64,000 nt of DNA, from the NCBI GenBank assembly GCA_000165345.1, contig CM000431.1, forward strand, positions 128,001 to 192,000. Direction: 5' to 3'. Under the pieces are notes generated by a model. The model had not been told where the DNA came from. It worked only from the letters and a program-made list of their open reading frames with translations, and made no database searches. Each line of letters begins with the position of its first letter. Within the stretch, counting starts at the first letter, position 1. Below, piece after piece: positions 11,407-38,500 of the stretch. A program made the translations under genes and the position numbers.

Positions 11407-11418
11407 TTTGGCGCCAAA
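11407..11418. promoter_or_regulatory. Palindromic E2F-like motif TTTGGCGCCAAA in the 181-bp divergent promoter between the CpClec-like and Cet1-like genes.
   Basis: Exact TTTGGCGCCAAA. The same TGGCGCC core recurs in most intergenic promoters of the window. Confidence 0.55.
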
Positions 11419-11449
11419 ACTTTGGTTATTACTTTAATATTATTATAAG

Positions 11450-12827
11450 ATGAGAAACAAAGAGATGGGGAAAACTAATCTTGACGAGTACGAGTTAATT
11501 GTAAGTTTTCTTATACAATTTTTTGCTTCAATAGTTAATTAACTTCTAATATTACTAATAGGATGGCTCATTTTCAACGGGATGTAGTCAGGAAATTGAG
11601 TTCATTGCACAGTCTTTGGTTGATCTAGTCGAGGCTTCCCCTGAGCTTTTAAATATGGATGGGAAAGTTGATTTGGAGGTAAGTTCCTTTATTAGTTTGT
11701 TTCTTGGAGCTTCTCAATAACTTCCTTTTATTTAATCACCGTAAATCTGCTTTGATCACTAGGTTGAAGGACGTATTGGGACTTTAATTAATGAAAATAC
11801 AAAGGAGAAGGTTTTACTCCCTGTGGAGGGAATGTGTTTGCTACTTCCAAGTGAAAAAGAGTTCTCCTACCGTTTTTCTCCTGGTTTGGAAAAGTGGCAA
11901 ATGACAAGTGTTGTAGAAGAATTAAGAAAGGATTTTGACGAGTCAAAAATCCCTTATATTATCAAAAATAGGAATACAAATGACTACTATGTTCATAATC
12001 CGAATAAATCAGAAACAGAAGACAAATCACTAATTAGATTAAGTTATATTTCTCCAAAAAATCAAAAAGATAAACCAACTGAAGCGATATGGAAGGAAAA
12101 GATTGCAGTCTTTGATTTTTGCTCTCCAGGCCAGCCTGGAGACTTGGAGACCAAACACAATATTGAGAATGGTACATTGCTTAAGGATTTCAGAATTGCG
12201 ATCAACCTTGAACATAAGGAGAATCCTATCGAAGTTGCCAATACTGTTACTGGTCCAATTGAAAATTCATGTGTTTTGGAAAGAAGAAGAGAAAGAGAAA
12301 CCGTAGAAGTTTCAAATTTTGTTCTAGACTCTACTCATGTGGTACAGATTGAAAGTCGCAGGGGATTTAGGCAATGCGAAACTTATGAATTAGAACTAGA
12401 GCTTAAGCCTTCCCACTTTATTCCTCTATTAAAGTCTTATATAGAGGATACAAACAATGGGAAATTGAAAGTAATAGGAACTCATCCTTTCATTAAGCTA
12501 CTTACCAACTTTGTTAATTTGGTGTTTGGAATTACTCTATTTCTCAATAACAAAAAACCAAATGAACAAATCGAATCTTCTATTCAAAACTCATCTGGAA
12601 ACGAAAACCAAATTATGGATTTAACAAGTTGTACTCAATCCAATGAAATAGTCCAAGCCTTCAAAAAATACGTCTCACCCATTACTCCTATACTCGGAGA
12701 CTATTTATATAGAGCCGTAGCTAGTGAGAAGCAGAAACTTAACAGACCACAAGATATTATTTGCAAGGATGATATAGATATTTCACTCGGAATTAAGCCT
12801 TTACCTCCTGATACTAAAGAAATCTAA
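11450..12827 (+). CDS. mRNA-capping RNA triphosphatase (Cet1/triphosphate-tunnel metalloenzyme family). Three exons: 11450..11500, 11562..11678, 11763..12827.
   Basis: ATG at 11450. Both introns have GTAAGT donors (11501, 11679) and AG acceptors (TAATAG|, CACTAG|), and both are in phase 0. The spliced N-terminus reads MRNKEMGKTNLDEYELI|DGSFSTGCSQEIEFIAQSLVDLVEASPELLNMDGKVDLE|VEGRIGTLINEN.. and carries the TTM beta1 ExExR motif (LEVEGRIG). A C-terminal YELELELK resembles the second metal-binding ExE strand of Cet1. Track ORF 11823..12827 is only exon 3 (GTG shown as M). Confidence 0.55.
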
Positions 12828-12835
12828 TTCATTCA

Positions 12836-13377
12836 TCATTTTATTAGAGAGTAAAGAATTGGAAGATCACTCTTTTCCTCAACTCTTAGAATGTTTTTAA
12901 GCTCCTCAGTGCTTAATATCTGTTTTCCATTAGTATACTCACTTCTCCCCTTTGTTGAGTCAGAGTCCATCTTTGACTCTTTTAGCAGTACTTTTCCTGT
13001 ACTCTGATAACCATTATATACCAAATAATCGTAAATTAGTGAATTTAATATTAAATTCTCATCTGAAATACAGTTTTCTTGATCTTTGTTTTCATCATTC
13101 TAAAATTAATTTTCAAGTCATATATATCCTAGAGTATTTTTTTGTCAAGCTTTTTCTTACCTCCTCTGTTAGGGAATACAAAATCTCTGCCATTAGCCTG
13201 GCTCTAACCTCACTCAAAACTCCTTTCTTTTCCAGCTCAGATTTCACGGCTAACATTTTTCCCCCCATCAAAGAAAATAGATTATTAGTTAGATTATCCT
13301 CACAGAAATTAAACAGGAATATCTGTTCCTGCTAACTTACCTGACCTAAGCTCCTCTAATGAATGATCCTCCTGCAT
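12836..13377 (-). CDS. FOPNL/FOR20-like LisH-domain protein (centrosome/basal-body family). Three exons: 13377..13341, 13249..13161, 13099..12836.
   Basis: The spliced product MQEDHSLEELRS|AVKSELEKKGVLSEVRARLMAEILYSLTEE|NDENKDQENCISDENLILNSLIYDYLVYNGYQSTGKVLLKESK...LPILYSLIK aligns by eye with human FOPNL. Matching segments are LEKKGVLGHLKARIRAEVFNAL, ENLLINELIREYLEFNKYKYTASVL and IPLLYGIL. Donors are GTAAGT and GTAAGA, acceptors are TTAG| and TTTTAG|, and the phases are consistent (37+89+264 nt = 130 codons). Track ORF 12836..13024 is the tail of exon 3. Confidence 0.65.
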
Positions 13378-13705
13378 GCTTTCTTTATCGAGTAATTAAA
13401 GTAAATCCAGTTATATATTCCTCCTAAATATTCTGATAATTAACCCGATTAGTTTTCACTTGAAAACAATAATTCTGGAGTTCAAGTAAAACTGAAAATT
13501 CAACTCAATAAAAGCCTTGTTATTTGCGTACTCGCAACTAATTCTCGCTTTAACACTTCTTGCCAGTACACAAAACGCTAAAATTCTCTACTCCTTTGCT
13601 AATTTACCTCACAAAAAAAAGTGTATACCGGCATCGTTTTCCCGCCCATTTTTTGGAAATAATTATATTATTTTTGACATGGGTGTAAATTCTTGAAAAT
13701 CAATT

Positions 13706-14386
13706 TTGTTGTTTAAAAAAATAAATAAAATGGGGAATTTTTTAGCATCCACAAAGATAACAACTGATCTCGCGAGCAAGTCTGTGTACTCTTATACACT
13801 TACAACTCTCGAAGGAAATCCTTTTCCTATGGAAAGCTTGAAAGGGAAAGTCGTAATGGTAACAAATGTTGCATCCAAATGTGGCTACACAAAATCTTAT
13901 TATAAACAAATGGTGAGAATCTACTCTGTGTTTGCTCCTCTTGGACTTGAGATTATTGGTCTACCCTCCAGAGAGTTTATGGGTCAAGAATTTGAAGATC
14001 CTAAAGAGATTCGCAAATTCGCAGATTCTCATAATGTTAAATTCCCTCTGATGGAGATTTGTAAAGTGAATGGCCCAGATGCTTTAGAGTTTGTACAAAA
14101 GCTGAAAAGAGAGACACCTGAGTTATATGACGAAAAAAGTAACACTTTATCTGCAATAAAATGGAACTTTTCAAGGTTTTTAATTGATAAAAATGGAAAA
14201 GTTGTTGCATTTAGAGGAACTAGGACCGAGCCTAACGAGCTTATTCCAAAAATAGCTGAACTTCTTGGTGTTTCTGATTACCAGAATCTTTTTAAAAATT
14301 ACGACAAGCTCCATCCGGAGTCAGGTTATGACCCAAAGGATGACGTATGTCCTTTAAAGCAAAAACAAAGTGAACAAGGTTCTTAA
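13706..14386 (+). CDS. Glutathione peroxidase, Cys-type (non-selenocysteine).
   Basis: GPx signatures KGKVVMVTNVASKCGYT, LGLEIIGLPSREFMGQEF and WNFSRFLIDKNGKVVAFRG. The true start may be the internal Met (MGNFLAS). Confidence 0.85.
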   Translation: MLFKKINKMGNFLASTKITTDLASKSVYSYTLTTLEGNPFPMESLKGKVVMVTNVASKCGYTKSYYKQMVRIYSVFAPLGLEIIGLPSREFMGQEFEDPKEIRKFADSHNVKFPLMEICKVNGPDALEFVQKLKRETPELYDEKSNTLSAIKWNFSRFLIDKNGKVVAFRGTRTEPNELIPKIAELLGVSDYQNLFKNYDKLHPESGYDPKDDVCPLKQKQSEQGS

Positions 14387-14477
14387 AGGAAAATAATCTA
14401 TTCGGACAATATTACTTAGCATGACCATAAATATTACCTACTATGGATTTTTGCTCTTGTAAGTTGAAACAAAATAT

Positions 14478-16082
14478 TTAGGTTTGGACGCCAGTAATCA
14501 ATTCATAGGTAGTTACTATTGATGATAATATTGGTCCAATTGCCGAAATGTAACAAGACAATACTACACAGAAATTTGTGAAAAAGGATTTTCTTCTTCC
14601 CCATATAATAGAATAAACAAACAAGGGATAAATCGACGCAGTAAAAGCGTCAATATAACCACAAAACAATTCAACATATTGAGTACAAGATTTTGCCACA
14701 TGAGAAAGGAATATGGAGACAAGTAAAATAGCTGTAGAAAGTAAAAACCTCCAAATATTGAACTTTTCTTTATTTTTCATGGACTTAAGGGTTGCTTCAG
14801 CACTAAAATCTTCTTGACCATCTGATTCAATAGCTCTTGCTTTATTTTTAGCTAATAGACTTACTAATTCATCCAATACAATATTAGGATTGGATGGGAC
14901 ATAAGTTAATTTAAGGGCTCTGGATTCCTTTTTATCATCATCATCATTACCATCAAAAATTACTTGGAAAACGTCTTCTACTGCTAATTCTGACATGTAA
15001 TTGATAAGTCCAATATCATTTACGATAAAATTACAAATTGAAACGGTAAATAATGGAATAATAACACATAATGAAATACAACTCAGTATTCTTGAGAATC
15101 CCATGAATATATCACAAGGCGAAAAGTTTAATGTAATGTTATCTTGTGTAGCTTCACCAAAAGTTGTATATGCAGAAATAGTTAGAGCCAAAGAGAAAAC
15201 CAATAAAAATGTAAAGGATGCTGAAATAACCTTAATACATCTCTTATAAGTACAAGTACTAACATTTAAAACGGCTGGGACTACCATACAATGACATAAA
15301 AAGGCATAAGTTGCGAATGTGAACATCTTAAAAGCTGATAGTGGTCCATGAGCTGGCCAAATATGTACTTCTCCTGTAACAGGAGGCATAGGTCCTGAAT
15401 AAGGGAAAACAACAGATCTAACTACAATAACAGTAGCCAAAGTGAAGAATGATGCAACTGAAAACCAGCCAAGAAAATCCAATTCTGAAACTTTAGATTT
15501 CGTTGCAAAAGGTAATACCAATAAAAAGTATAATGCAGACAAAAAGTATTCATCCTTCAAATACTCCAAAAATTTAGCTTGAGGGAAGGAAAATACAGCA
15601 TGAGTAACCAGATCCTGAGTAAATGAACGCAATAGAATGAAGTATACTGGAACAGCATAAGCCATTGAAAGGAAACAAATAATGGAGATAGACTTAAAAT
15701 GAAACTTCATATTTCCTTTCATTTCCTCAACTTCACTGGCTGTCAGAATCATCTTCTGACCCTTCTGTAACTTCTCTACATCTTCTTTGTTCTCCTTCTT
15801 TGCGTCTCTTCTAGCTAAGAAACTACGAATACTCTTATATGCAGAAACTCTCATTAAAAGAGTGGATAAATCCACTGCTCCAAGTTGTAATGACCCTACA
15901 ACATAAATCGAATGGGTAACTATTGAAACAATGGCACAAATGATCAAAGTTGAAATTCCGACAGCCAAACCTGCCATCTTCATACCATATGTCAGAAATA
16001 CAACACCAGAGCCTATGCAACCGGCTGTCATGGTAGCGAAGGCCTTACTCGAATACTTGAAACTATCGTTTGCAGCCTCCAT
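14478..16082 (-). CDS. Multi-pass membrane transporter, probably of the amino-acid transporter (Aa_trans/AAAP-like) family.
   Basis: 534 aa with about 11 hydrophobic helices. The N-terminal ATMTAGCIGSGVVFLTYGMKMAGL resembles the Aa_trans signature (IGSGIL.LP). Family assignment is tentative. Confidence 0.5.
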   Translation of the reverse strand: MEAANDSFKYSSKAFATMTAGCIGSGVVFLTYGMKMAGLAVGISTLIICAIVSIVTHSIYVVGSLQLGAVDLSTLLMRVSAYKSIRSFLARRDAKKENKEDVEKLQKGQKMILTASEVEEMKGNMKFHFKSISIICFLSMAYAVPVYFILLRSFTQDLVTHAVFSFPQAKFLEYLKDEYFLSALYFLLVLPFATKSKVSELDFLGWFSVASFFTLATVIVVRSVVFPYSGPMPPVTGEVHIWPAHGPLSAFKMFTFATYAFLCHCMVVPAVLNVSTCTYKRCIKVISASFTFLLVFSLALTISAYTTFGEATQDNITLNFSPCDIFMGFSRILSCISLCVIIPLFTVSICNFIVNDIGLINYMSELAVEDVFQVIFDGNDDDDKKESRALKLTYVPSNPNIVLDELVSLLAKNKARAIESDGQEDFSAEATLKSMKNKEKFNIWRFLLSTAILLVSIFLSHVAKSCTQYVELFCGYIDAFTASIYPLFVYSIIWGRRKSFFTNFCVVLSCYISAIGPILSSIVTTYELITGVQT

Positions 16083-16712
16083 CTTTCCTTCAAAAATAAA
16101 ATCTATCTTTTACTTTATTTACTTTAAGAACTTCTCCCGACACTTGTACTTAAAACTAGAATTGTTCGGAATTTTTCTTAATGCTTTTTATTTAATTACA
16201 CTAAATTGCTGATAATAAGCCTTTCAACTTATATGAAAGACACAATATAGTAATTATTTGTTTATTCAATTCAGATTCTTCTGTTTATTAATTATTTTCT
16301 TTAACAGCTATTTCTTCTTTCTGCTCCTGTCCTTTAGCCCAATGCAGAAATAGGTCCCTAAAAATATTGCCGCCAGATCCCGCGCGCCTCCCGCCGAAAG
16401 GTAAATGTCAAAAATTAACGACATGGTAAAAAAAAGGATTAAAAAGATATTAAGAAAAACAATGTAGTAGTAAGAATTTTACTAATATGGATTTAACTGG
16501 AAAGATTTTTAGTTGAGTGAATGATTATTTCTTTGATTTTTTGCTATGACATTTTGTTTTATTTTTTTAATTCTTATCAATATTAATTATGTGTGTAAAT
16601 AAATGATCTTTTGAGGAAAATGTGTATGTGAGAAATTTATTGGAAAAAAAAAGCTGTTTAAAAAGAATCCCTAGATTAGAAAGATTTTTAGTTTTTTTGT
16701 TTAAATCTTGTA

Positions 16713-17813: not shown

Positions 17814-18026
17814 AACTACTCATTTTAACTAATTTAGTCATTTTATAAATCTTATTCCAATAACTTATTTTTCTATTTTTGTTTTTTTTCTTTCCTTTTT
17901 TACCTTCAATTTAATCTTAAAATTAAAATGCATTTCCTGGCACCAGTCTGAGAATACCAGTAATGTTGGCGCCTAAATGTTGCTTTTAAACTGAAAACAT
18001 GAAAAAAATATGAAATTGGAATAAGA

Positions 18027-18812
18027 ATGAAAGGAGTTTTATGTTTAGTTCTTATTCAGCTGTGGCTTATAATAGGTAGGTTTGTTATATTTTATAGAGC
18101 TGACTTATTTGAAGAATTTCTGAGAGAATTACAATGGATCTAAAAATTGTAGTCTTTACAGTTAATTAAAATATGGTTAAATGGTCGGCTAAAATTCAAT
18201 AAATATTTAAATACGCTTCTTTTTTTTAGGAAAACTCTCAGTTTCTGCAAATAAGGTCTTAAACAACTACGAATATTGGGAAGATAAAATCGGTTCTATT
18301 TCCATAGATAGCCAAGCAAGTAATATTAGTACAGGAGTTAAGAAGAATTCCGCATCATACATAGGAGAAAACATTAAACCCTCAAACTTAGAAGTGCAAG
18401 GAAACCAAAGAATTTTGTCTGCTAGTATTAGTACTAGGCCAAAGAACAATCTTAAAACTTTAGATTTTAAGGATAATGAAATAAATGAAAAAACTCTGAT
18501 TGGAGCCACTAATAGTCCTAAAAACTGTGAATGCAAGGTTACAGTAAGTTATAAAAAAATAAATGAGTTATACTAGGCTCACAAGATGCTTTATTAAATT
18601 ATTCACAAATATATTACTAATTTCTACTTTTTTTCCATTAGAATGACTCTTGCTGGTCAAGGTCAGCATGTATTGGAATTGCAAGTACAATTTCCGTCTC
18701 TAGCCTTTTTATATTCATCGCTTTAATGTGGCTTGTTCAAGTTCTCTCAACTCATGCTGCAAAAGAAGAACATATCATGTTGAAAAATAAACTCAAAAAA
18801 CAGAAAACATAA
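18027..18812 (+). CDS. Small, previously unannotated type-I membrane protein of about 177 aa. Three exons: 18027..18075, 18230..18543, 18642..18812.
   Basis: Exon 1 ATGAAAGGAGTTTTATGTTTAGTTCTTATTCAGCTGTGGCTTATAATAG (MKGVLCLVLIQLWLIIG, a signal peptide) ends at a GTAGGT donor. Intron 1 ends TTTTTTTTAG, and exon 2 is in phase (2+312 nt), matching track ORF 18394..18576. A GTAAGT donor follows at 18544 and an acceptor CCATTAG| at 18641. Exon 3 encodes NDSCWSRSACIGIASTISVSSLFIFIALMWLVQVL.. (a TM helix) and stops at TAA 18810-18812. Confidence 0.5.
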
Positions 18813-19042
18813 AAATGTTAGTTAAGGACAAAATATAATTGGGAAAAATAAGCCATTTATTTGAATGGAAAAAAATATAATGAATTGAATGAATCAAAGC
18901 CTCAATTGTGCTTAGTAGTATAATGTATTAATTTTAGAGAATAAAAAAAAATTTGTAGAATCAGTGTATTAATATTGAATCTTAATCTTAAATCTCAAAC
19001 CTGAATTTACACTTGTCCGGACATCTAACAAAATGCATTCTC

Positions 19043-19071
19043 TTGGCGCCAATTTGAGAAGATGTGGCGCC
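19043..19071. promoter_or_regulatory. Two E2F-like sites (TTGGCGCCAA at 19043-19052 and TGGCGCC at 19065-19071) about 100 bp upstream of the first SLC35C-like gene.
   Basis: tcttggcgccaatttgagaagatgtggcgccctg. Confidence 0.5.
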
Positions 19072-19171
19072 CTGATCTAAAACGATTTTTAGATCTATAA
19101 GGAGATAAAGATAAGACAGGAGAGAATTAGAAATAAAAAGCAAAAAAAAGAATTTAAACAGCAAAGTAAAA

Positions 19172-20470
19172 ATGGGTCACTCAAAGAATAAAAAGAGTAA
19201 CTCTTCGTCTGGCTCAGAAGCTGGAAAGGAATCTGAAAGGTTTATTTCATTCCTCCCAAATAGCGTTGCAACAGTATTGGCCATTTGCTCGTTTATAGCA
19301 GCTTCAATATCTTCAGTTTATTTCAACAATGGTGTTTTTAAGAAGCAAATCAAGTTTCCTGTCTTTGTTTCATGTGCACAACAGCTTGTTGGTATGATTA
19401 TAATGAGCATATTTGGATTAATAAGAATGGCAATCTCAAAATCCTCTGAAAGTGGTAATGGAAAAGATGGAGCTGAGGTACAAGCTAACGGTTCATCAGT
19501 AAGCAGCTGGAAGAAGGTGATGTACGCTATTCCAGTCGCATTCTTTTTCTCTTTCAATATATCATTTAACAATATCTGTTTAACTCATGGTAAAGTTTCA
19601 ACTTATGCTATGGCTAAGTCTACCACACTGATGTGGTCTTTATGCCTCCAATTTTTAATCTTGGGAATTAAAGTTAAGTTGACCTCACTCATTTCTTGTG
19701 CAATCATTATTTCTGGTGTTCTCATTGGAGCATTTGATCCAAAATCACTTGTTTTGGTTTCTTTAATTTATGGTTGTATCTCATCATTCTCTCAGAGCTG
19801 CTACAATATCACTCTCAAGTGGGTTCTCCCTAAGATTGGTAACGATTCTGCAGGTCTTCTTAAATATGTTCAAATGTGGTCAATTCTCTTCTTTTTCATT
19901 CCTATGTTTGGAACTGGAGAAGTTATCCCAGCATTTACAACATCTGGTTGCTTTGATTTCAATGATCTTAATAGAATGATTTATCTATGGGGTCTAATCA
20001 CCACATCAGCTCTTCTTGCCATTGGTGTTAACCAGAGTACTTATGTTGTCATTGGTTTAACCACTCCAGCAACATTCAATGTTTGTGGTTTGGTCAAGCA
20101 AGCCTTACAAACTATCGGTGGAATCTTCTATCTAGGAGAATCTCTACCAACTCAAACAATCATTGCAGTTTGTCTCACATTCTGTGGTTCTGCTTCATAT
20201 ACTGCATTCAATCACTTTGGATCAAAACCATCTATGTCACCTTCTGAATTGAAAGTTGTTGAGGAAAAATACAAGGAAGTTGCAAGACAATCTGTCGGTA
20301 CTGCTTCTGATGTATTTGAAAATGCCCAAGATGACATCCTAAAGAGAAGTGGAAGCAAGACTAAGAACATGATTACACCATTCACCTCAAAAAATCCAGA
20401 AGCCATTCCTCTTAAGGATGATATTGAGGAAGGTCTCCCAACTGGAAACAATAACGAAAACAGAAACTAA
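19172..20470 (+). CDS. Nucleotide-sugar transporter, SLC35C/GDP-fucose-transporter-like (TPT/DMT superfamily). Paralog 1 of 3 in tandem.
   Basis: 432-aa, about 10-TM protein. FNNICLTHGKVSTYAMAKSTTLMWSLCLQFLILGIKVKLTSLISCAIIISGVLIGAFD and TPATFNVCGLVKQALQTIGGIFYLGE...CGSASYT line up by eye with the human SLC35C1 blocks [38 protein letters not shown]...GGFWLGVD and SPLTHNVSGTAKACAQT...GGSSAYT. Confidence 0.8.
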   Translation: MGHSKNKKSNSSSGSEAGKESERFISFLPNSVATVLAICSFIAASISSVYFNNGVFKKQIKFPVFVSCAQQLVGMIIMSIFGLIRMAISKSSESGNGKDGAEVQANGSSVSSWKKVMYAIPVAFFFSFNISFNNICLTHGKVSTYAMAKSTTLMWSLCLQFLILGIKVKLTSLISCAIIISGVLIGAFDPKSLVLVSLIYGCISSFSQSCYNITLKWVLPKIGNDSAGLLKYVQMWSILFFFIPMFGTGEVIPAFTTSGCFDFNDLNRMIYLWGLITTSALLAIGVNQSTYVVIGLTTPATFNVCGLVKQALQTIGGIFYLGESLPTQTIIAVCLTFCGSASYTAFNHFGSKPSMSPSELKVVEEKYKEVARQSVGTASDVFENAQDDILKRSGSKTKNMITPFTSKNPEAIPLKDDIEEGLPTGNNNENRN

Positions 20471-20957
20471 TTATAGTTCGTTAAATTCTACATTTGTTTA
20501 AATTTCATTCCCCGATGCCTATTCCCCTGTTTTTCTCCATCTAAAACCAATGTTTCTAAACTAATCAATTGCAGAAATATAAACTGTTTGTGGAATTCCT
20601 GTGCCATGTTGCATTCTTTAACAAATTACTTGTTGATGAATTTCCACTCTTATATGTATTAATAATGAAGTAGCCTTATATTACTTCCACCCCACTTTCC
20701 CACACTATTATTTTAAAATGTGCCGCTTTTACCGCCCTCGGTACCTTTGCCCGCTAAAAAGATCTTTGTGAATTTTTCATGTGGAATATCCAAAAATTAA
20801 AAGGCGCCTTTGAGTGATGATACTCAAACAATTAGTGGAACTTGTGATAATTTCATATGAAATTTGTCGAGAGAATAAGAATTTAAACCGCTAGGGAAAA
20901 GAATATATTATTATCAAAACTCTCAGATTATTTTACCATTAACCTTGAACTTTAAAA

Positions 20958-22142
20958 ATGAGTAAAGATTCAGAAAGACCAGAAATCTCTTTTATGGGCT
21001 TGCCAAGGCTGGCGAGTGCTAGTATTGCCATTGCAGTTTATGTTGTATGCTCAATTGGTTGTGTATACGCAAATAAATGGCTTCTAAGTAATGTAGGAGC
21101 TTGCCATGGTTTTATTCCCTTAGTACAACAACTTATTGGAGCCATTTTTGTGAGAACTATGGTGTATATCACAGGAATCTGTGGTATTGGCTCAGATAAT
21201 CAAAATCCTAGCTCTGATAAAACTAGTCAAAACGAAAAACAAAATGAATCACTCGTGAGCAGGCTCTGGAACAGATATAAGTACATCTGGCCAGCATCCT
21301 TTTGCTTCTCCTCCACAATTGTTTTGAACAATGCTTGTTTATCTATGGCAAAGCTTTCAACATATTCTGTTGCAAAATCCACAACTTTAATCTGGAACGT
21401 TCTCTTCCAATTCATTCTCCTCAGAATCAAGCTCCCAGTTAGTACAATCTTGTCCTGCTTCCTTATTCTTGCTGGTGTGACTATAGGTTCCTTGGATACC
21501 AGTACTTTGGCCCCTATGGCAGTTATTGCAGGCTGTTCATCCTCGATTTTCCAGGCTCTTTATAATACATGTATTGCCAGGGCTCTCCCTAAGACAAATA
21601 ATGATACCTCAGAGGTTTTGGTTAGGAATCAAGAGCTCTCCTCTGTGTTTCTTGTTATATATATTCTTGCCTCTAAAGAGCTTGTCAATTTATTCATGCA
21701 CTCACCATGCTTTGATTTATCCTCATCTAAGTTCTTAAGCTGCTGGGCTATATTCTTCCTCACCACTGCATTCGCAGCAGGTCTCAACAAGTTCACATTC
21801 ATGGTTATTGGACTTACTGAGCCTTCGACATTCTCAGTCATTGGGTTCACTAAAGCAGGTTTACAAACCGCCGGTGGATGGTTCATTTACAAGGATCCAG
21901 CATCTATCAAATCTGTTACTTCTGTAGTTTTCACACTTTCTGGATCTTTGATATATGGTATTACCAGGGGATCTAAGAAATCAGAATCAAAAAAGGAACA
22001 GGTAGAGGAAATCAGAAGACTGACTAGATGCTCCGCAGCGTCAGTTGGTGATATCGATGCAGTTCCCTCCCCCAGGGACGAAGAAGCTAAGAAGTCTGCC
22101 TCAAACGATGAAAAACAAAAACTTATCACAAGCAAAGTCTAA
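20958..22142 (+). CDS. Nucleotide-sugar transporter, SLC35C-like. Paralog 2 of 3.
   Basis: 394 aa. The same conserved blocks are present in diverged form (NNACLSMAKLSTYSVAKSTTLIWNVLFQFILLRIKLPVSTILSC; EPSTFSVIGFTKAGLQTAGGWFIYKD...SGSLIYG). Confidence 0.75.
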   Translation: MSKDSERPEISFMGLPRLASASIAIAVYVVCSIGCVYANKWLLSNVGACHGFIPLVQQLIGAIFVRTMVYITGICGIGSDNQNPSSDKTSQNEKQNESLVSRLWNRYKYIWPASFCFSSTIVLNNACLSMAKLSTYSVAKSTTLIWNVLFQFILLRIKLPVSTILSCFLILAGVTIGSLDTSTLAPMAVIAGCSSSIFQALYNTCIARALPKTNNDTSEVLVRNQELSSVFLVIYILASKELVNLFMHSPCFDLSSSKFLSCWAIFFLTTAFAAGLNKFTFMVIGLTEPSTFSVIGFTKAGLQTAGGWFIYKDPASIKSVTSVVFTLSGSLIYGITRGSKKSESKKEQVEEIRRLTRCSAASVGDIDAVPSPRDEEAKKSASNDEKQKLITSKV

Positions 22143-22340
22143 GCTATATGTTATGTGTGACCCACCAACCGTACTTAAGTAAAACACATTTTTTTCAAAT
22201 TATTTCCATATTATTGGTATTTGTATTGATATTTCCTAGCCATCATAAAGTTCATTTTTTTTAGTAAACCTCTTAATTTAGTGCTGAATTAGCATTGCAA
22301 GTAGATACTTAATTTTGCTGTGTTTTTGTTCTAGTAGGTG

Positions 22341-22383
22341 CGGCCCGCCGGCGCGGCATGTGTTTGTGGAACGGGCCCGCCGG
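22341..22383. promoter_or_regulatory. GC-rich island with a direct repeat GGCCCGCCGG (x2) and a GCGCGG core, in an otherwise AT-rich intergenic region upstream of SLC35C-like paralog 3.
   Basis: cggcccgccggcgcggcatgtgtttgtggaacgggcccgccgg. CCCGCC/GCGCG resemble E2F-type cores. Its GC content stands out strongly against the local background. Confidence 0.4.
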
Positions 22384-22948
22384 ATTTGTTGGGTCTTCCA
22401 CTACCGCCTAAAGGAATATGGGTAATTAAAAGACAAAAAAGATGGATTGTCTACTGTATTGCTATTTATTACAAGTAACTTGAATATATAATTTTACATT
22501 CCGTATTTGAAACTAGTTTAACTTATCTTACCTTTCGAGTAATATTCTTTAATTTCTATGTATTATTAGTGAGGAGACAGAGACGTCTAAATTTGGTACG
22601 GTACCACTAGAGACTTAGTAATAATAATTAAATGATATTTAAAACCTATGAAATGTATACCAAGAGAGAAAAAGGAGAAATGAGAAATAATACGTAAACG
22701 TTGCCTGATAATTAATAGTTAATTTAAGCTTCATTCAAATAAATTAAATAGAAGTTTGTATATTAATGGCATGTCTATATGGCCATTTAAATGGATTGTA
22801 AATTCAAATCTCACTAGCAAAGACACATTTAATAATAAAATTATCATTCTACAAACTTTAATAAGAACAGAAAAATTGTTCTAGTTTTGAAGAATTTATC
22901 TGATATTTATTTGAAGAAAGTTTTATTACTTCTGTAGTTAATACGAAA

Positions 22949-24118
22949 ATGGCAGGTGATTTCGGAAACAAGTCAAATTCCCAAGAGGAAGTAAGATACT
23001 GCTTTGGCTTACCAAATGCAGTTGCTGCTCCTATTGCCATGTGCGCATTCATTGTCTCATCTATTGGTTGCGTATACTACAACAAGAAGTGCTACCAAAA
23101 GGATCTTCCATTCCCAGTCTTCATGTCTTGGGCTCAACAACTCATTGGTATGGCTATCATGTCAACTTTCTTAACTATTAGAGGTATTCTCAGTGGAAAC
23201 GAAGAAATGTCCGCAAGTATCCCATTGAGCAAGAGACTTTACAGATATAAGTATGCAGTTTTCGTAGCTTTCTGCTTCTGTATGAACATTTCTTTGAACA
23301 ATATGTGTCTCAAGGATGCCAAGGTTTCTATGTATGCTGTCGCAAAGTCAACAACTGTATGCTACTCACTCCTCTTACAATACTTCTTATTGGGTATCAG
23401 AGCTAAGCTCTCATCTGTTTTGTCTTGCTTCGTTATTATTGGTGGTGTTATCGTTGGTATCTCAGATAAGGAATTCGGTCTTGAGCCACGTTCATTCTTC
23501 ATGGGCACTTTATCATCATTCTTCCAATCTCTCTACTCTGTTGCAGTCAAATACACTGTCCCACACTGTGACAACTCCACTACTGAACTCTTACTCCACG
23601 TACAAGAGCTCTCATGTATCATTCTTTTGGTCCTCTCTGTTGCCTGGGGTGAAACTTCAAAGGTCTTATCATCTAATGTATTTGCTTTCGTCTCTGCTCC
23701 ACTCAGTGCCCTCTGGTTATGGGTTTTGATGGCTGGTTCCGCTATCCTCGCTATCTGCTTAAACCAATGCACATACTTGGTCGTCTCCCTTACTACCCCA
23801 GCTACATACAACGTTACTGGTTTAGTTAAACAAGCCCTCCAAACTGCCGGTGGTTTCATCTTCTGGGGTGACAAGCTCAAGCCAGCTCCAGTTGGCGGTG
23901 CATGCCTCACACTCACTGGTTCAGCCATCTACACACTCACCAAGCTCTGGGATAACACTCCAAAGAACACCAAACAAGAAGAAACCATCAAGGAACAAGC
24001 TCGTCTCTCAGTTGGTACTGGTTCTGATGCCTTTGAAAACCCACTAACCGAGAATGGAAACCAAAACGAGAAGCAACCTCTCATCCCAGAGGACAAATGC
24101 GAGAAGGGTCAGGCTTAA
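22949..24118 (+). CDS. Nucleotide-sugar transporter, SLC35C-like. Paralog 3 of 3.
   Basis: 389 aa. NNMCLKDAKVSMYAVAKSTTVCYSLLLQYFLLGIRAKLSSVLSC and TPATYNVTGLVKQALQTAGGFIFWGD...TGSAIYT. This is the paralog most similar to paralog 1. Confidence 0.8.
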   Translation: MAGDFGNKSNSQEEVRYCFGLPNAVAAPIAMCAFIVSSIGCVYYNKKCYQKDLPFPVFMSWAQQLIGMAIMSTFLTIRGILSGNEEMSASIPLSKRLYRYKYAVFVAFCFCMNISLNNMCLKDAKVSMYAVAKSTTVCYSLLLQYFLLGIRAKLSSVLSCFVIIGGVIVGISDKEFGLEPRSFFMGTLSSFFQSLYSVAVKYTVPHCDNSTTELLLHVQELSCIILLVLSVAWGETSKVLSSNVFAFVSAPLSALWLWVLMAGSAILAICLNQCTYLVVSLTTPATYNVTGLVKQALQTAGGFIFWGDKLKPAPVGGACLTLTGSAIYTLTKLWDNTPKNTKQEETIKEQARLSVGTGSDAFENPLTENGNQNEKQPLIPEDKCEKGQA

Positions 24119-24325
24119 GTTGCGTCATTTTTCTAATCCTGTGCTTTGATCGGGGCACATCACAAATTAACAAGTTCGAACGAGCTAAGAATGGCTTAAA
24201 GCCCTTCCGAACATCGCGGTGTCTGTCGCCTAAATCGGGTCCATCACGTTGAGATTCTTGCTCTACTTTTGTGTCAATGTACACAGGGTCTCGATTCTAC
24301 TTGAGCTTGCCGTAATATGCGGGTC

Positions 24326-24356
24326 TGGCGCCGTTTTGTTTTGCATGGTTGGCGCC
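24326..24356. promoter_or_regulatory. Two E2F-like sites (TGGCGCC at 24326-24332 and TTGGCGCC at 24349-24356) with an intervening GCATGG, between SLC35C-like paralog 3 and the PAN-domain gene.
   Basis: gtctggcgccgttttgttttgcatggttggcgcctaatgg. Confidence 0.45.
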
Positions 24357-24634
24357 TAATGGTTACGTAAAACACGAGGCTTTGTTCCTGGTTTGTCGAT
24401 TGTCGATGGGCCTGATTAAGAGGAGATGCGGAGAATTTATACTAAAAATGTTTGGGTAGTATAATGAGATGTTTATCTTCTTTTCCAAGTGAGTTTGGAT
24501 TTAAGAAATGTATCTTAGTCTAGGTGTCAATGGACAGGTAGATGTCAGGGATCTTAACATTTTACGTGTTCGATACGTATAAATTATTCTGGGTTTACGA
24601 TATTGTTTACTTTTTTTTGTTGAATCTTTTTTCT

Positions 24635-26782: not shown

Positions 26783-26987
26783 TCCCGCGTGAATTATTTT
26801 TTCACTTTTATTATTAATCTAAATTTTGACCTTCAGTCTTTAATTCCATCATCCAAACCCTGAAAATTCCTTTGTATTTCCAAACCCTTTGTTAACACAA
26901 TACTTACCTCCTCCCGACATTTGCTACTATTTTTACATATTATTGCAAATTAATGTGTTACTCATAATAAATTCCCACATTATAATT

Positions 26988-27020
26988 TGCATGCATGGCG
27001 CCAAATATGTGGCGCCATTT
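26988..27020. promoter_or_regulatory. GCATGCATG followed by two palindromic E2F-like sites (TGGCGCCAAAT and GTGGCGCCATTT), in the divergent promoter between the PAN gene and the large Ser-rich gene.
   Basis: gcatgcatggcgccaaatatgtggcgccatttg. Confidence 0.5.
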
Positions 27021-27558
27021 GTAGGATCTCGATACCTATTTAAAAGAAAAATGTATTAACTAGTATTTGACTTCCTAATGCTTTTCTAAGCTGAGTTAAG
27101 TTAAGAGTTAGACTAGTGTATCTAAAAGAATGTTTTAGAATTTTAAATTTGAACATTCTAATTTTTAGTTGAACCGTAAGTAAAGTGAAGGTATAAGTAG
27201 AATAGTATTTTAAAGATGCAAAGATGGATTTAAAAAAAATCTACCCTTTTAGAGTAAATAATAGATAATTAACATCCATATTATATTTAAATATTTCATA
27301 TTCTTTAATTTCAAAGCATTTTCAATCTCAACTTTTTTTTACAAAATTTATTTTATTCAATTCCAACAACAATAGGCGGTATATTATGCAGCATGGAAAC
27401 AAAGTATTAAAAAAGATCTCAAAAAAAAAATTGAAAAAAGAGAAAACTTTCGAGAAAAGTTTTTAAACTTAAAAATATTTAAAGGATTATGAAGTATAAA
27501 CTAATACTCAGAAAGGACGCAAACGTTATAAACTAAGAACAATAGAAAATTAACCAGA

Positions 27559-33500: not shown

Positions 33501-34416
33501 TGCTGAGGAATTGATATCTAAGTTCACTTCCTGGTCAGCTTCTATTTCAAGAAAACACTCTTCCATAGTTCCAGATGTTAATTTCAAGCCATCCTTTATT
33601 TTTGTTCCTCCTACACCAAATAATAGAGCTGACTCTCCGAGAATCTTAGAGAAAGAATTCTATATCCATGAATCCGTGTTCTTATTTGCCAGAGAGGAAC
33701 TTCAGAGAATTGAGCTTCCTATGCAACAAATTAGAAATGAGGACCTGGTAGAGGTGAAAATGAGCAGAGCAAGCCTTGCTTTTATTAACAATAATAAACA
33801 AGCTCCTCCAAGTATTACAATACCTCAAGCTCCTAGTTTTCCAGATATTAGACCCAATATCTCTCCAATCTCCCAAGCTCCTTCCTCTATTGGAGGGTTT
33901 AATGATAATGAAATCTCTCATTTAGTCTCGAATATTGAGAAAAAACCTGGTAAATACAAAGAGTCTATAGAAAATACTCAGAGAAGCTCAGAACTAAGTA
34001 ATTCTCTTGAGAAAAAGTCCGATATTAGTTTATCAAGTGGAAGTTTAGGTCAAGGAAGTGAGTCTTCTCAAAGAGAAATGAGTTCTGAGTCAGTTATAAA
34101 GGAGAATTCGGAAGAAAATGTCTCTGAATCTCAGAGATCAATATCACCAAAGTCAAATTTAGAGTCAGAAAATATTCAGGGATTATCAAATGGACACGAA
34201 TATGGGTATAGCACAGATTCAAGTATTACAAAAGGCGAAAAAAATAATTCTAACTCTTTAGCACAAGAAAATAGTCCGAATTCAGACTCCAATTCTCACA
34301 ATTCTCAACCAGAAATGTCTAGCCTCAAGTCTGAATCATCTTTGGATTTTGGATCCAACACTGACTTATCGAGTTCAGACTCAAAATCAGTCTCAGGGTC
34401 TAACTCTGGAGAATAA
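27559..34416 (+). CDS. Large (2285 aa) secreted Ser-rich protein of unknown function with SKSR/SR-like low-complexity tracts.
   Basis: Single 6.9-kb ORF. The N-terminal hydrophobic segment (ILLFFLTSGYLIFSPVVFG) acts as a signal peptide. The N-terminal 250 aa are Ser/Lys/Arg-rich (SKSKSPQKK..RSKSRSPSRSSSKSRSKSRSRSELSKSR). The central 1500 aa have ordinary composition and no motif I recognise. The C-terminal 300 aa are again Ser/Pro-rich. Confidence 0.6.
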   Translation: MNGSKNRPSFSVKILLFFLTSGYLIFSPVVFGIGLSQEQTGFTGYDSPIQETSGLEATNYEARDYSTIFGQDASSSPESKTLGELSRVKSRSADRSPSLPYSQEPSMELENSISKSPSAFPNQSQQYSPVYEQSPSKNSRFVLKRENSLLGELSKSKSSSKSKSPQKKIPSKDKKRPLVVSLSSEASHSERSKSRSPSRSSSKSRSKSRSRSELSKSRTGYGGEMSISSPEISPVKTEKSRSKSRKESSKRPSTPESEFLKEQEVSSSQNMGNIIPLTAPDMSPSPKFSFNEVSPSNRVEASNIEASASPSTLLDQSIPQEASVSSPESSSLLSEELSVKEDGSLNATQMPSRKSSGTSESVSARPYTPVDEGSEFSTLLDGSLSSNEPIDTSHLPLEVASESSIGSNYMTLLSSLYGMQALSGVPLDFSEELFRIEILVSEALYNTGLSISNADVTLLTKRVALVDSSDKNNSFGAQVHPNSFEKIPSFPKVTFNFAECVYQLENILFHTRSFIKPVSMSHILKGCDHIRSSLNISKPIMENNEIFTKVIQYLILRIYNIGNHEILSIIHKRTSIPAILDLTVFEKLQKSLIEDFLSDSTSLPLPVEFWRTIFVQQLHSFNLYSKDLIGGLLDDHFGLMDILLDTMYSDPIKMCPYITSIVFYKVNPFKIEDIRINSAKIQTFCLIYLKNMGLNELVTLNKLNMPTLSRNSRLDQIAKQLAPGFEILPYFHPDFPKDGNDLTWETCYSIYSSVSMMLNSLQLDLIFPQISPLCTKITKKPPSPKFILGMFSRILDIPSTIQNSLLEIQDIDQIISSLSVQLKLPETHLREIYTDYIQGNPIKYLNTIYTILTKSLKFYFGFDSNQESNRQRNSNKTFEQLFLTRNISENTQMFERLNYWSTIHLYFLSFTMGIPNSSEILSGIYSFTPSNCESLLFSFFRRVSYSTRSSIADSLTLCITMYSVIYKNNISSVLVKNISIKELRDALNYKIGTWTPTQNEWMRSIYMVFENKLEIIPNISNIQTLSLTINEDFFNCFYSVNKYLHGMVTVTRFKDIKTPNLENRILNERSLGFNLCSSMSIGAHSTREEAIELRIISTVIEAVRQFGFKIDIEYIKEFINNYKLSNNSAFPSGRIILDNIISKFPNTLGTAIKKAFQANSSSSNSLPYFIQAERIISKTLESRGCFIQNKETSIDGRSFELSRDISISPGNKNVSYYNTINSCLSWKTFGYFNLISCYSVLVNSGTCESKDVILEAMVEIAERLEWPRELILLILSQDFSLSDSNVFQKIKQSTDQEEFEKYLQIIQDLIVHVEEHVNDFSWSEKSLSNPKDESYVLAEPSEVSISKSQTQKINYSFAFGFSKDSIGDYLRLWEYRKEIVLNQIMSFPVNPSLSLTKDEISSLLMDSSPQNINKFVNSKMTPFANKIKELCYKEPHGSFLCEIKTQIGLPPLKIYGKGSNMISTSISVMNPPKELGQENLLVLMIATPSKSSIKWEKLEPQSLLFLSVLMGPKWEKELKRYTQLSVKYFPYSGEYIRLTPPVFKIETKESIIQETSDLLDSSISASISRSPSTKMSKASVLPGVWHEHLGNISIQKLVDFSKFVPDNSNLLINIVWTLASAFNSLWVGGVELCQIDLKSIYAYLGSQNQQSLNMGKILDEFLEFGPNEENVHSLTNFVLHTLSPPLIRFSELGRSRVHSVTESSIEASQSKINECNDQLEVMNIFKNILSSTDLSGKIKGQNLETICREISEIDPTKLDCSSLAWARENSRIPNDLDKWPITDIPIVSPTLKQQEVEIPTSVNPNEEFSNPESKYSEQSRSLLESAPTIPVYIPPSAPSIPPSIPPPIRQSVRHPIPPSISASEPSAKEVVTEESQKKEFSPESPPSEESEVEGTSTNEIFDQASVDQGDSSVFVTNPILPPPPTSTIVKPYKPEDLNEFTLVKVPKGQLMNLHIYPRITGNLSEQRKFEIKELLTTLKGVAEELISKFTSWSASISRKHSSIVPDVNFKPSFIFVPPTPNNRADSPRILEKEFYIHESVFLFAREELQRIELPMQQIRNEDLVEVKMSRASLAFINNNKQAPPSITIPQAPSFPDIRPNISPISQAPSSIGGFNDNEISHLVSNIEKKPGKYKESIENTQRSSELSNSLEKKSDISLSSGSLGQGSESSQREMSSESVIKENSEENVSESQRSISPKSNLESENIQGLSNGHEYGYSTDSSITKGEKNNSNSLAQENSPNSDSNSHNSQPEMSSLKSESSLDFGSNTDLSSSDSKSVSGSNSGE

Positions 34417-34613
34417 ATTTGAAAAGAAAAAGAGAGGGAATAAAAGAAAGAAGGGAATAGAAGAAAGGGGAAAAAAGTATAATCTTAAATTAACAATATA
34501 AATTATAAACATAAAGTATATCGGGATTAGTAGTGAAAATTAACTCAAAAACTTAGCCATAGAAAGAATATAGTAGTCTTAGAAATATCAATTTAACTTT
34601 AATTATAATATAA

Positions 34614-36089
34614 TCACTTAATTAAAGAAGTCTTTTTGTTAATAGAGAAGAAGTAGGTAGAGTTGTGGGAGTTCCAACGTTTTGTGTATAATAGTATAAA
34701 TATAGAGAGAATTAAGATGAAGGAATTAATAATAATTGCAATAATAGTTGGAAAGAAGAAGTTATCTTTATAGTTTCTATGAATAAAAGAGTCCCAAAGA
34801 TTGTATACTAAGGTAAAGAATCCTGCAATTGTGGAAGAAATACCTTGAATTGAATTTAAGTGAGTATAACCAAATGCGGAAGTAAAGAGACTGAAGGAAC
34901 ATCCAATAAAGTAGGAATAGCAGAATACACAAATGACAATTCCAAATAAATGTGATAAGAAGCAATACGGAATAAAGTTGGCAAAAAGGACCAAAATTAA
35001 TAGAGAAGATGCAACAAACAAAACCAAAAATAAGTAGATACCCATTAGATCTACAAAGATACCCACTAAAATAGCTGCAATAAATGTAGTTCCAAGCAAA
35101 AGACCAAATATATTTATAATAGATTCAGAGTATTGTAAGTCTCCAGAAGTCTGATCAAGTAGAATTGATTTCATATTGACAGTAAAGTAAAGCCTTACAA
35201 ACCACATTAAAGAGTATATAATAGTAAAAAGAATGGTTGGAATAGAAATAAGCTGCTCTTTGAATGTTAAAGTCCACTGATAAGGAATATCTTCTTTACA
35301 TCTATTAACTTCAACAACCATTTGACTATTAATTAATGAAAGACGCTCCTCATGATCAAATTCAGTAAGAGAGTTCATAATTTGAGATCTGGAAATAGAA
35401 ACTCTTGTACAATAATCAACAGTTGGAGTGACAAAAGGATGTTTAGGAATAATAAAGTAGAATCCAATCATCCAGAGAATTGAAAAGAAACAATTGATAA
35501 TTATAATAAATTGTGTAGGATTAATTCCTAAATAATGGAAATCAATACCTTTAGAAGAAATATAACGAACTAAATTAACCATAATTTGCATATAAGCGAA
35601 ACTCATTCCAACAGAACCTCCCACCATTGCTACAACAAGATGTTTCTTTGAATCATAAAACACAGAAATAGAAGTCTTTGTTAAAGTTAGAAGTTGTGTA
35701 GAAATTCCCCACAAACATATTCCAATATATGGAAAGTAGAACCAAGTTTTATCCAAAAAAAAGCAGAAAATCCATCCCATAATGTGAAATGCTGCTGATA
35801 GAATAGCTGTATTCCTATTATTAAATAAATCCACAAAATAAGCACCCAAAACTCCTGATAATAGAAGTGAAGATGTACCAAGAGAACATAGACTATTCAT
35901 TGTAGTTAGCTTGAAGTCAGGATCTAACCAGTAATAGGCATCGTTATTCATTAATAATTCCTTTACAGCAGATGGCAATAAATATGGTGCTCCCACCATT
36001 GGTGCAGAAACCACATAAAATAATAATAATGTGGTACTGGAAAATCCCGATTTGGTTTGATTCTCACAAGTAAATGGTTTTTCCATCAT
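34614..36089 (-). CDS. Multi-pass membrane transporter, MFS-like. It forms a head-to-head pair with the gene at 36602..38083.
   Basis: 491 aa with about 12 predicted helices. A conserved-looking loop GVLGAYFVDLFNNRNTAIL resembles the MFS/MCT-type G..D.FG.R motif. Its architecture resembles the divergently transcribed neighbour. Confidence 0.5.
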   Translation of the reverse strand: MMEKPFTCENQTKSGFSSTTLLLFYVVSAPMVGAPYLLPSAVKELLMNNDAYYWLDPDFKLTTMNSLCSLGTSSLLLSGVLGAYFVDLFNNRNTAILSAAFHIMGWIFCFFLDKTWFYFPYIGICLWGISTQLLTLTKTSISVFYDSKKHLVVAMVGGSVGMSFAYMQIMVNLVRYISSKGIDFHYLGINPTQFIIIINCFFSILWMIGFYFIIPKHPFVTPTVDYCTRVSISRSQIMNSLTEFDHEERLSLINSQMVVEVNRCKEDIPYQWTLTFKEQLISIPTILFTIIYSLMWFVRLYFTVNMKSILLDQTSGDLQYSESIINIFGLLLGTTFIAAILVGIFVDLMGIYLFLVLFVASSLLILVLFANFIPYCFLSHLFGIVICVFCYSYFIGCSFSLFTSAFGYTHLNSIQGISSTIAGFFTLVYNLWDSFIHRNYKDNFFFPTIIAIIINSFILILSIFILLYTKRWNSHNSTYFFSINKKTSLIK

Positions 36090-36173
36090 ATTTGTGTGTC
36101 TAGCTTAAGTTCCTTTTTATGAATCCTTTTGACAAAAATTTTTTATTTCGTTTTTTCTTATATAGTGGATACC

Positions 36174-36431
36174 GTGGCGCCTAAACGATAACGCAGGAAT
36201 GCTTGCATTAATAGATTTAGATCCAAATTAGATGATTTTTGTTAAATTTGTTAGAAGAAAACTTAAAAAAAAATATAGAATTCATGTTTAGCCACAGGCT
36301 TTCTTTTCATTGAAATTGTTTCCATCATTTCCCTTAGATAAGCACTTTCTTTAGTTAAAACAGTTTTTTTCCTTCATTTTAATATTTCATAAATAAAATA
36401 CGCACGCGGCGCCACATTCTTGGCGCCAAAT
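36174..36431. promoter_or_regulatory. Bidirectional promoter of the MFS-like pair, carrying three E2F-like sites (GTGGCGCCTAAA at 36174-36185, GCGGCGCCAC at 36407-36416, TTGGCGCCAAAT at 36420-36431).
   Basis: accgtggcgcctaaacg ... cgcacgcggcgccacattcttggcgccaaatcc. The intergenic region is 512 bp. Confidence 0.5.
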
Positions 36432-36601
36432 CCAAAGGTACCATTGTATTGAGACGGTGGGAAATGAAGAAAAAAGGAGGCAAAAAAAAATAACGAAAAT
36501 ATCACAAAATGAAAAAATAGAGAAATCTGACATTGCAATAAGAAATTAGAATTTTTTTTAATAAATAATTTTTTCAAGATATTCTTTTATAAAGAGTTAT
36601 A

Positions 36602-38424: not shown

Positions 38425-38500
38425 TAGATTAATAATATATTAAAAAAAAAAGACTACTAGTTTCTAAGAATAACCCTAATTATTGAAACTTTTGTGATTC

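Follow-up and report, generated by a model that had tools for sequence, protein, structure and literature searches.

E2F-like palindromes in the promoter-bearing spacers of a 64 kb region of Cryptosporidium parvum chromosome 3

The 64 kb stretch analysed here (the window) belongs to chromosome 3 of Cryptosporidium parvum, around the genes cgd3_490, cgd3_500 and cgd3_510, and its spacers contain many copies of a palindrome with a GGCGCC core that resembles the binding site of E2F proteins. The 432-aa protein encoded at 19172-20470 is matched residue for residue on the 1.10-Mb record CP044420.1 (assembly GCA_015245375.1), and window proteins and their neighbours are identical to C. parvum cgd3_490, cgd3_500 and cgd3_510 on that record. 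In cluster look-ups, the 432-aa protein and seven neighbours, including cgd3_500 and cgd3_510 (described as 'fucose translocator, within locus of 3 paralogous genes'), were all labelled as C. parvum proteins. By protein identity the source is a Cryptosporidium genome, as expected for the upstream motif of Oberstaller et al. 2013. Our gene map is based on deposited gene calls and, in the outer parts of the window, on stop-free frames and Pfam matches. It comprises 23 gene spans and leaves 21.5% of the window non-coding, with a GC content of 26.7% in non-coding versus 34.4% in coding DNA. Three triose-phosphate/GDP-fucose transporter paralogues stand in tandem (19172-24118) with one E2F-like site apiece, and two divergent MFS transporter paralogues (34614-38083) have in common a 512-bp spacer with three sites. 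The products encoded beside the sites are transporters, an mRNA triphosphatase, a PAN-domain protein and hypothetical proteins, with no obvious S-phase set.

The hexamer GGCGCC occurs 12 times (11410, 17968, 19045, 19066, 20803, 24327, 24351, 26997, 27011, 36176, 36408 and 36422), whereas dinucleotide-preserving shuffles of the window give 0.63 copies on average and 4 at most. Eleven of the 12 sites read TGGCGCC on either strand, for a total of 16 strand matches (0.55 expected), and the full palindrome TGGCGCCA is found 5 times (0.05 expected). Besides GGCGCC, the window contains five other cores of the type [C/G]GCGC[C/G] (SGCGCS) and ten GGCGGG/CCCGCC hexamers; in non-coding DNA only, SGCGCS reaches 17 copies against 0.56 expected. 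The over-representation of the motif in the window is far beyond chance. The consensus is T-T-[G/C]-G-C-G-C-[C/G]-A-A, most often TGGCGCCA, with GGCGGG half-variants, and the window sites conform to the published forms (TGGCGCCA or [A/T][C/G]GCGC[G/C][A/T], with the GGCGGG variant). The symmetric core has T-rich 5' and A-rich 3' flanks, which are weaker or reversed at 19066 and 20803. Canonical T-core-A sites are TTTGGCGCCAAAA (11407), CTTGGCGCCAAAT (36420), CATGGCGCCAAAT (26995) and TTTTGGCGGGAAA (49491). The initial annotation of this DNA had listed 12 exact TGGCGCC cores. Twelve GGCGCC hexamers are indeed present at its positions to within 0-2 nt, the offsets arising mostly from counting at the flanking T, but the one at 20803 lies in AGGCGCCT, which is not TGGCGCC on either strand. 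Both GGCGGG variants that it had placed at 49492 and 60375 exist; the former is TTTGGCGGG with its core at 49495, and the latter is actually CCCGCC at 60390-60395, in the context AAACCCGCCAAAT.

The cores avoid genes completely. All 12 GGCGCC (binomial p = 1e-8), all 17 SGCGCS (4e-12) and all 10 GGCGGG/CCCGCC (2e-7) are non-coding, as tested against the non-coding fraction of 0.215, the clustered GGCGCC sites representing 8 independent regions. When all k-mers were ranked by their occurrence in non-coding versus coding DNA, TGGCGC(C) and TGCATGC(A) led the list once A/T-rich words were excluded, TGGCGC(C) with 16-17 non-coding occurrences and 0 coding ones (16 versus 0 for TGGCGCC itself). The excess in upstream non-coding over coding DNA was found in the window and in four syntenic loci. 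Ten of the 12 GGCGCC sites are located 40-330 bp 5' of an annotated start codon, and 25 of the 27 cores have at least one start codon downstream of them, at a distance of 40 to ~1200 bp and mostly within 350 bp. At the level of spacers, an E2F-like core is present in 15 of 16 promoter-bearing (tandem or divergent) spacers versus 1 of 6 convergent ones (Fisher p = 0.0013). The statement that the sites precede start codons is therefore accurate for most of them, the exception being the pair 24327/24351, which lies between stop codons. Equal frequency in coding or 3' regions, named beforehand as the observation that would count against the proposal, is not seen in the window, where 27 of 27 cores are non-coding and 2 of these 27 are located in a 3'/3' spacer. 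With 15 of 16 promoter spacers carrying a core, and TGGCGCC and TGCATGC as the top specific k-mers, the description of these motifs as the dominant cis-regulatory grammar is fair for the window.

Four GGCGCC pairs are closely spaced, as had been noticed for sites 10-25 bp apart: 19045/19066 (21 bp), 24327/24351 (24 bp), 26997/27011 (14 bp) and 36408/36422 (14 bp). Canonical E2F sites likewise often come in twos near transcription starts, as in the adenovirus E2 and E2F1 promoters. Single sites are about as frequent as pairs, and the orientation of sites relative to the gene is variable. The proposed extension of the core also exists, as GGCGCCTAAA at 17968 and 36176 and as GGCGCCTAAT at 24351. 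CGCCTAA is non-coding in 7 of 7 cases, a small number. A reading of TAAA/TAAT as a motif in its own right, resembling a telomere repeat (CCTAAA), was rejected, with few instances and no enrichment of CCCTAA; we take the extension as flank degeneracy because motif-1 instances published for lncRNAs (long non-coding RNAs) already include ...CGCCTAA forms, CAACCGCCTAA and ATACCGCCTAA (PMC7840661). GATC/AGATCT was likewise rejected as a second motif: GATC(T) recurs in conserved blocks near several sites, yet neither GATC nor AGATCT shows an excess in non-coding DNA, AGATCT occurring 5 times there and 28 times in coding DNA.

The reported companion of the E2F-like sites, GCATGCA, corresponds to the ApiAP2 motif AP2_1, TGCATGCA (PMC12246861, PMC4117751). 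It gives 24 strand matches in the window for 2.6 expected and is present at all five places where it had been noted (26988/9, 45120/1, 45371/2, 49505/6 and 54037/8). Copies of TGCATGCA at 8702, 26989, 38411/38415, 40856, 45121, 45372, 49506, 54038 and 57022 are non-coding in 10 of 10 cases, and this palindrome is enriched upstream of genes. Three of the copies fall in convergent 3'/3' spacers (the double copy 38411/38415, and 57022), which hints at more unannotated antisense or non-coding promoters. AP2_1 is a palindromic companion that sometimes adjoins E2F sites (26988, 49505), but it has a different sequence and belongs to a different factor family, for which binding of AP2 domains was measured on protein-binding microarrays (PMC4117751).

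We then followed the individual sites along the window. A CCCGCC (8230-8235) is located 152 bp 5' of the start codon at 8083 (minus strand). The full canonical 12-bp E2F palindrome TTTGGCGCCAAA (11407-11418) is the sole E2F-like core of the 181-bp divergent spacer between the start codons at 11268 and 11450, which belong to a 775-aa gene (minus strand) and to the mRNA triphosphatase gene (plus strand). A composite of E2F-like cores, CGCGCGCCTCCCGCC (16381-16395), occupies the divergent spacer between starts at 16082 (minus) and 16713 (plus); at the matching place C. ubiquitum has two CCCGCC sites. Farther on, TTGGCGCCTAAA (17966-17977) stands 59 bp 5' of the start codon at 18027 of a 177-aa gene, and TTGGCGCC is invariant in four species.

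Upstream of the tandem transporter genes, the pair TGGCGCCA / TGGCGCCC (19044-19072, 21 bp apart) is found 127 and 106 bp 5' of the cgd3_490 start (19172); the lncRNA Cp_lnc_151, on the opposite strand, has its 5' end 265-286 bp away. C. meleagridis, C. ubiquitum and C. canis retain both sites, C. bovis one of them. The site AGGCGCCT (20802-20809), with its A/T flanks reversed, lies 155 bp 5' of the cgd3_500 start codon (20958) and decays to AGCGCC / AGCGCT in C. ubiquitum and C. canis. The cluster CCCGCCGGCGCG ... CCCGCC (22344-22381) lies ~600 bp 5' of the cgd3_510 start (22949), and its GGCGCG/GGCGCC core is retained in C. meleagridis and C. canis. Beyond these genes, the pair TGGCGCCG / TTGGCGCCTAAT (24326-24360, 24 bp apart) is situated in a 516-bp 3'/3' spacer between the stop codons at 24118 and 24635. 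The pair TGGCGCCA / TGGCGCCA (26996-27017, 14 bp apart), with TGCATGCA ahead of it at 26988, belongs to the divergent spacer between the start codons of the PAN-domain gene (26686, minus strand) and of a 2285-aa gene (27559, plus strand).

In the spacer of the MFS paralogues, TAGTGGATACCGTGGCGCCTAAAC (36163-36186) is a 24-nt block invariant in four species; it contains the GGCGCC at 36176, 92 bp 5' of the start codon at 36089 (minus strand). On the other side, the pair CGGCGCCA / TGGCGCCA (36407-36428, 14 bp apart) precedes the start of the plus-strand paralogue (36602) by 194 and 180 bp, and its second site is invariant in four species. A 22-nt block also invariant in four species, CGCGCCTAAATTACTAGATCAT (40602-40623), lies in the divergent spacer between starts at 40153 (minus) and 41085 (plus), where TTCCCGCC (40824-40831) is likewise invariant. 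The block TTTGGCGGGAAATTGCATGCA (49492-49512), 67 bp 5' of the start at 49562, joins a GGCGGG-type E2F site to an AP2_1 site, and this E2F site matches the canonical one including its flanks as TTTGGCGGGAAA. Six further E2F-like cores are all non-coding: 8230, 13641 (whose position is kept in C. ubiquitum), 45168, 54009 (GGCGCG), 54566 and 60390. A tRNA-Glu(CTC) gene (54377-54450, minus strand) lies in a 1.3-kb spacer that also holds GGCGCG (54009), TGCATGCA (54038) and GGCGGG (54566).

Other features of the window are repetitive. An array of about 10 copies of the hexamer GTTGTG (9744-9852) lies within the 775-aa minus-strand gene. A tandem repeat with periods of 45/93 nt (58718-59284) is contained in two overlapping minus-strand open reading frames (ORFs; 57529-59701), the plus strand being strongly T/C-skewed; these ORFs may represent a single gene split by a frameshift or an intron. 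Downstream of an acyl-CoA-synthetase-like gene, a tandem repeat of AGGCCTAAATTCC units (63722-64000; 53-bp period, 93% matches) reaches the window end.

Three published lncRNAs were placed in the window by exact matches, all on the minus strand. Cp_lnc_151 (18494-18780) is antisense to the 177-aa gene. Cp_lnc_153 (47090-49472) is antisense to the DUF900 hydrolase gene (45488-49009), and the motif table of the lncRNA paper lists the GGCGGG and GCATGCA of 49492/49507 at -29 and -42 of this transcript (PMC7840661). Because that paper places both motifs upstream of the opposite-strand Cp_lnc_153, the segment 49492-49512 is a bidirectional promoter, with the start codon at 49562 on one side and the lncRNA 5' end (49472) on the other. 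Cp_lnc_152 (23873-24433, an exact 561-nt match; PMC7840661 supplement) overlaps the 3' end of the GDP-fucose transporter gene cgd3_510 in antisense, and its correlation with the sense mRNA was reported as -0.81 (PMC7840661 supplement). It covers the pair 24327/24351, which is upstream of no start codon and lies at +78 to +107 inside the assembled transcript. The position of this pair is kept in three other species, with a spacing of 24 bp in C. parvum versus 6 bp in C. ubiquitum and C. canis. One possibility is that the short-read 5' end of Cp_lnc_152 is inexact; alternatively, the pair could function from a position 3' of the start, or a different transcript could be the one that it drives. 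The surrounding 516-bp spacer (24119-24634) is conserved end to end in four species, with a mean column identity of 76%. We considered a structured RNA gene in it and set this aside, since it lacks any ORF and matches no Rfam family, even with the threshold relaxed to E <= 1. For the four sequences of this spacer, RNAalifold predicts long-range helices whose columns are mostly invariant and so speak neither for nor against a structure, pairing left-hand blocks (TGTCTGTCGCCTA, ACATC, TTCGAAC) with right-hand blocks and site 24327 with site 24351.

We extended the analysis to the syntenic loci of C. meleagridis, C. ubiquitum, C. canis and C. bovis, in all of which gene order is identical. SGCGCS cores are non-coding in 13 of 13, 9 of 9, 16 of 17 and 3 of 3 cases, respectively. 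Orthologous sites were found at matching distances from start codons in the first three species and partly in C. bovis. For instance, the site 5' of the 177-aa gene is 59, 60, 61 and 42 bp from the start across species, and that 5' of the MFS gene, by the cross-species measure of distance, 87, 83, 84 and 82 bp. The sites are conserved in orthologous upstream regions, more weakly in C. bovis. In four-species alignments of 11 spacers, 69% of the GCGC core columns are invariant versus a background of 36%, a value attained only twice in 5000 random placements. The motif forms the centre of several of the longest invariant blocks (TAGTGGATACCGTGGCGCCTAAAC, CGCGCCTAAATTACTAGATCAT, TTGGCGCC and TTCCCGCC), and what is conserved is the exact GCGC core with its T/A flanks, not general GC content. 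Conservation extends to the GGCGGG-type sites, as seen between C. parvum and C. ubiquitum. Some spacer blocks of 17-24 nt are likewise unchanged across four species and correspond to no motif treated here: AATTTAGTGCTGAATTAGCA (22275-22294), ATTTTTACATATTATTGCAAA (26929-26949), CATGTGGAATATCCAAAAA (20778-20796), AGTTTCTAAGAATAACCCTAATTA (38459-38482) and TTGACTACGATACACACT/CATGCACACCGGTATTGA (40838-40874).

The C. canis locus has a GC content of 49%, versus 32-34% in the other four species. Its non-coding DNA is at 45% GC, and SGCGCS is still enriched there about 6-fold. Its coding DNA contains one SGCGCS where dinucleotide shuffles predict 6.0; with synonymous-codon shuffles (counting in this case 0 SGCGCS and 0 GGCGGG), 3.9 and 5.7 copies are expected, respectively. 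In C. parvum coding DNA the expectation is below 1 for SGCGCS and about 1 for GGCGGG, too few to show depletion.

Comparison with published Cryptosporidium motifs, which had been suggested as a check, yields matches to the E2F family and to AP2_1 TGCATGCA. The motif, first noted by Bankier et al. 2003 according to PMC3734150, was reported by Oberstaller et al. 2013 as E2F 5'-TGGCGCCA-3', the most over-represented upstream motif, with core [C/G]GCGC[G/C] and variant GGCGGG (PMC3734150); it is also given as [A/T][C/G]GCGC[G/C][A/T] (PMC12246861). The text of Mullapudi 2007 gives no motif sequences, and PMC5146892 nothing on the subject. The motif is present upstream of 161 of 200 co-expression clusters (PMC4117751), tops the sporozoite peaks of ATAC-seq (assay for transposase-accessible chromatin with sequencing), the majority of these peaks being bidirectional promoters (bioRxiv 10.1101/2025.01.17.633476), and ranks first in the 100 bp that precede lncRNAs (PMC7840661). 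The window sites share with it the organism, the consensus, the GGCGGG variant, the upstream location, the presence of TGCATGCA alongside and the link to the 5' ends of lncRNAs, and we see no essential difference between them. The E2F-like identity proposed initially is therefore in agreement with the published C. parvum E2F family in sequence, location and organism (PMC3734150, PMC12246861). The canonical E2F/DP site TTT[C/G]GCGC[C/G]AAA, known from the E2F4-DP2-DNA structure (Zheng et al. 1999, cited in PMC3734150), has the same symmetric GCGC core between a T-run and an A-run. In animals and plants, canonical E2F sites serve a cell-cycle regulon through Rb-family pocket proteins, whereas the Cryptosporidium motif stands upstream of nearly all gene classes; no Rb orthologue has been reported in Cryptosporidium (PMC3734150).

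The window sites are thus very probably copies of the known E2F-like promoter element of Cryptosporidium, and their resemblance to canonical sites points to E2F/DP as the likely reader. Candidate proteins are the C. parvum E2F genes cgd1_1560 and cgd6_1430 and the DP genes cgd7_3650 and cgd8_1850 (PMC12246861; bioRxiv 10.1101/2025.01.17.633476). A putative E2F/DP winged-helix heterodimer would bind the symmetric GCGC core with one subunit per half-site and with an affinity modulated by the T/A flanks. Short intergenic regions bound in this way would be marked as promoters with open chromatin. Since the site is palindromic, it could act for two divergent genes at once, or for an mRNA together with a lncRNA on the other strand. 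Both E2F/DP as the binding factor and the choice between activation and repression at a given site are inferred.

Several points weigh against this reading. In the literature examined, including newer work, we found no direct E2F/DP binding assay for Cryptosporidium; the 2013 paper calls for ChIP-seq (chromatin immunoprecipitation with sequencing; PMC3734150), and a 2025 review describes most regulatory components as lacking experimental confirmation (PMC12246861). For occupancy by E2F/DP, the enrichment of the motif in ATAC-seq peaks (bioRxiv 10.1101/2025.01.17.633476) is indirect evidence. Neither the E2F nor the DP genes are in the window, and the window statistics are limited to 64 kb and ~16 promoters. 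C. bovis retains just 3 of ~13 sites, and the pair in Cp_lnc_152 is inside the assembled transcript rather than 5' of it. Finally, the motif occurs upstream of genes of all expression classes (PMC3734150), which fits a general promoter element better than a cell-cycle switch.

A bolder view is that the E2F-like core is the primary, self-sufficient element defining bidirectional transcription starts in the compact Cryptosporidium genomes, which we regard as possible and rather doubtful. It would explain why almost every promoter-bearing spacer has a core, how a single palindrome can serve the 181-bp divergent spacer, and the apparent purge of cores from C. canis coding DNA (0 versus ~9.6 in synonymous-codon shuffling). 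If it were true, the pair 24327/24351 would serve specifically to control the antisense lncRNA Cp_lnc_152, and antisense regulation driven by E2F sites would be conserved across species (Cp_lnc_152 versus the GDP-fucose transporter, r = -0.81).

The most serious alternative is that the sites are a real promoter element with another reader, such as an ApiAP2 domain not yet assayed, a zinc-finger or a Myb-like protein, the likeness to E2F sites being a coincidence. Such a reader would sit well with a Cryptosporidium literature in which no binding assay ties E2F/DP to the motif, with the presence of the motif 5' of almost every gene class, and with E2F expression that does not track the motif-bearing ribosomal-protein genes (PMC3734150). 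However, full canonical E2F sites including flanks are reproduced at 11407 (TTTGGCGCCAAA) and 49492 (TTTGGCGGGAAA), and the only apicomplexan genus reported to have retained E2F/DP is the one where the motif dominates (PMC12246861, PMC4117751). A further argument against an ApiAP2 reader is that the AP2 domains of C. parvum, assayed on protein-binding microarrays, yielded TGCAT, CACACA and G-box motifs but none of the GCGC type (PMC4117751). We consider a different reader improbable.

Alternatively, the palindrome could be mainly a structural or core-promoter signal rather than the target of a timing regulator, a GC-rich island that excludes or positions nucleosomes and fixes bidirectional initiation. 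The cores are found in 15 of 16 promoter spacers irrespective of gene function, one site suffices for the 181-bp divergent spacer, ATAC-seq peaks are often bidirectional (bioRxiv 10.1101/2025.01.17.633476), and coding depletion in C. canis is what one expects if a lone site creates a cryptic promoter. A GC-rich island, however, does not account for the conservation of the exact GCGC core and T/A flanks, nor for the ~6-fold enrichment of the hexamer in C. canis non-coding DNA at 45% GC. Such a role is compatible with E2F binding; as the main function of the palindrome it appears quite unlikely.

Still less credible is an action at the RNA level, with paired palindromes forming hairpins in 5' untranslated regions or in lncRNA. 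Palindromic copies 14-24 nt apart can pair, and the copies at 24327 and 24351, paired by RNAalifold, are inside Cp_lnc_152. But that two identical palindromes can pair is trivial, singles are found as often as pairs, the orientation of a site varies from gene to gene, and the spacing shifts from 24 bp in C. parvum to 6 bp in C. ubiquitum and C. canis. Moreover, the motif is found in ATAC-seq peaks upstream of transcripts (bioRxiv 10.1101/2025.01.17.633476). Chance, base composition or a dispersed repeat, to which a sample as small as 64 kb might lend itself, can be dismissed, as the observed counts were reached in 0 of 100-300 shuffles, the flanks of the sites are mutually unrelated, and all sites are in the GC-poorer non-coding DNA (26.7% versus 34.4%).

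The palindromes of this window are the already published E2F-like motif of C. parvum, and the phenomenon is known; two of the sites, the GGCGGG and GCATGCA at 49492/49507, are already tabulated for Cp_lnc_153 (PMC7840661). What the window adds is local: base-level conservation of sites across five species, the depletion in C. canis coding DNA, and a conserved pair inside Cp_lnc_152. These additions leave the overall picture unchanged and could guide the choice of sites for mutagenesis or chromatin immunoprecipitation. The importance of the motif has been in print since 2003-2013, and the window illustrates it. Cryptosporidium is a major cause of childhood diarrhoea, and because it is the only apicomplexan genus reported to retain E2F/DP (PMC12246861, PMC4117751), this motif probably offers the main point of access to the control of its transcription.

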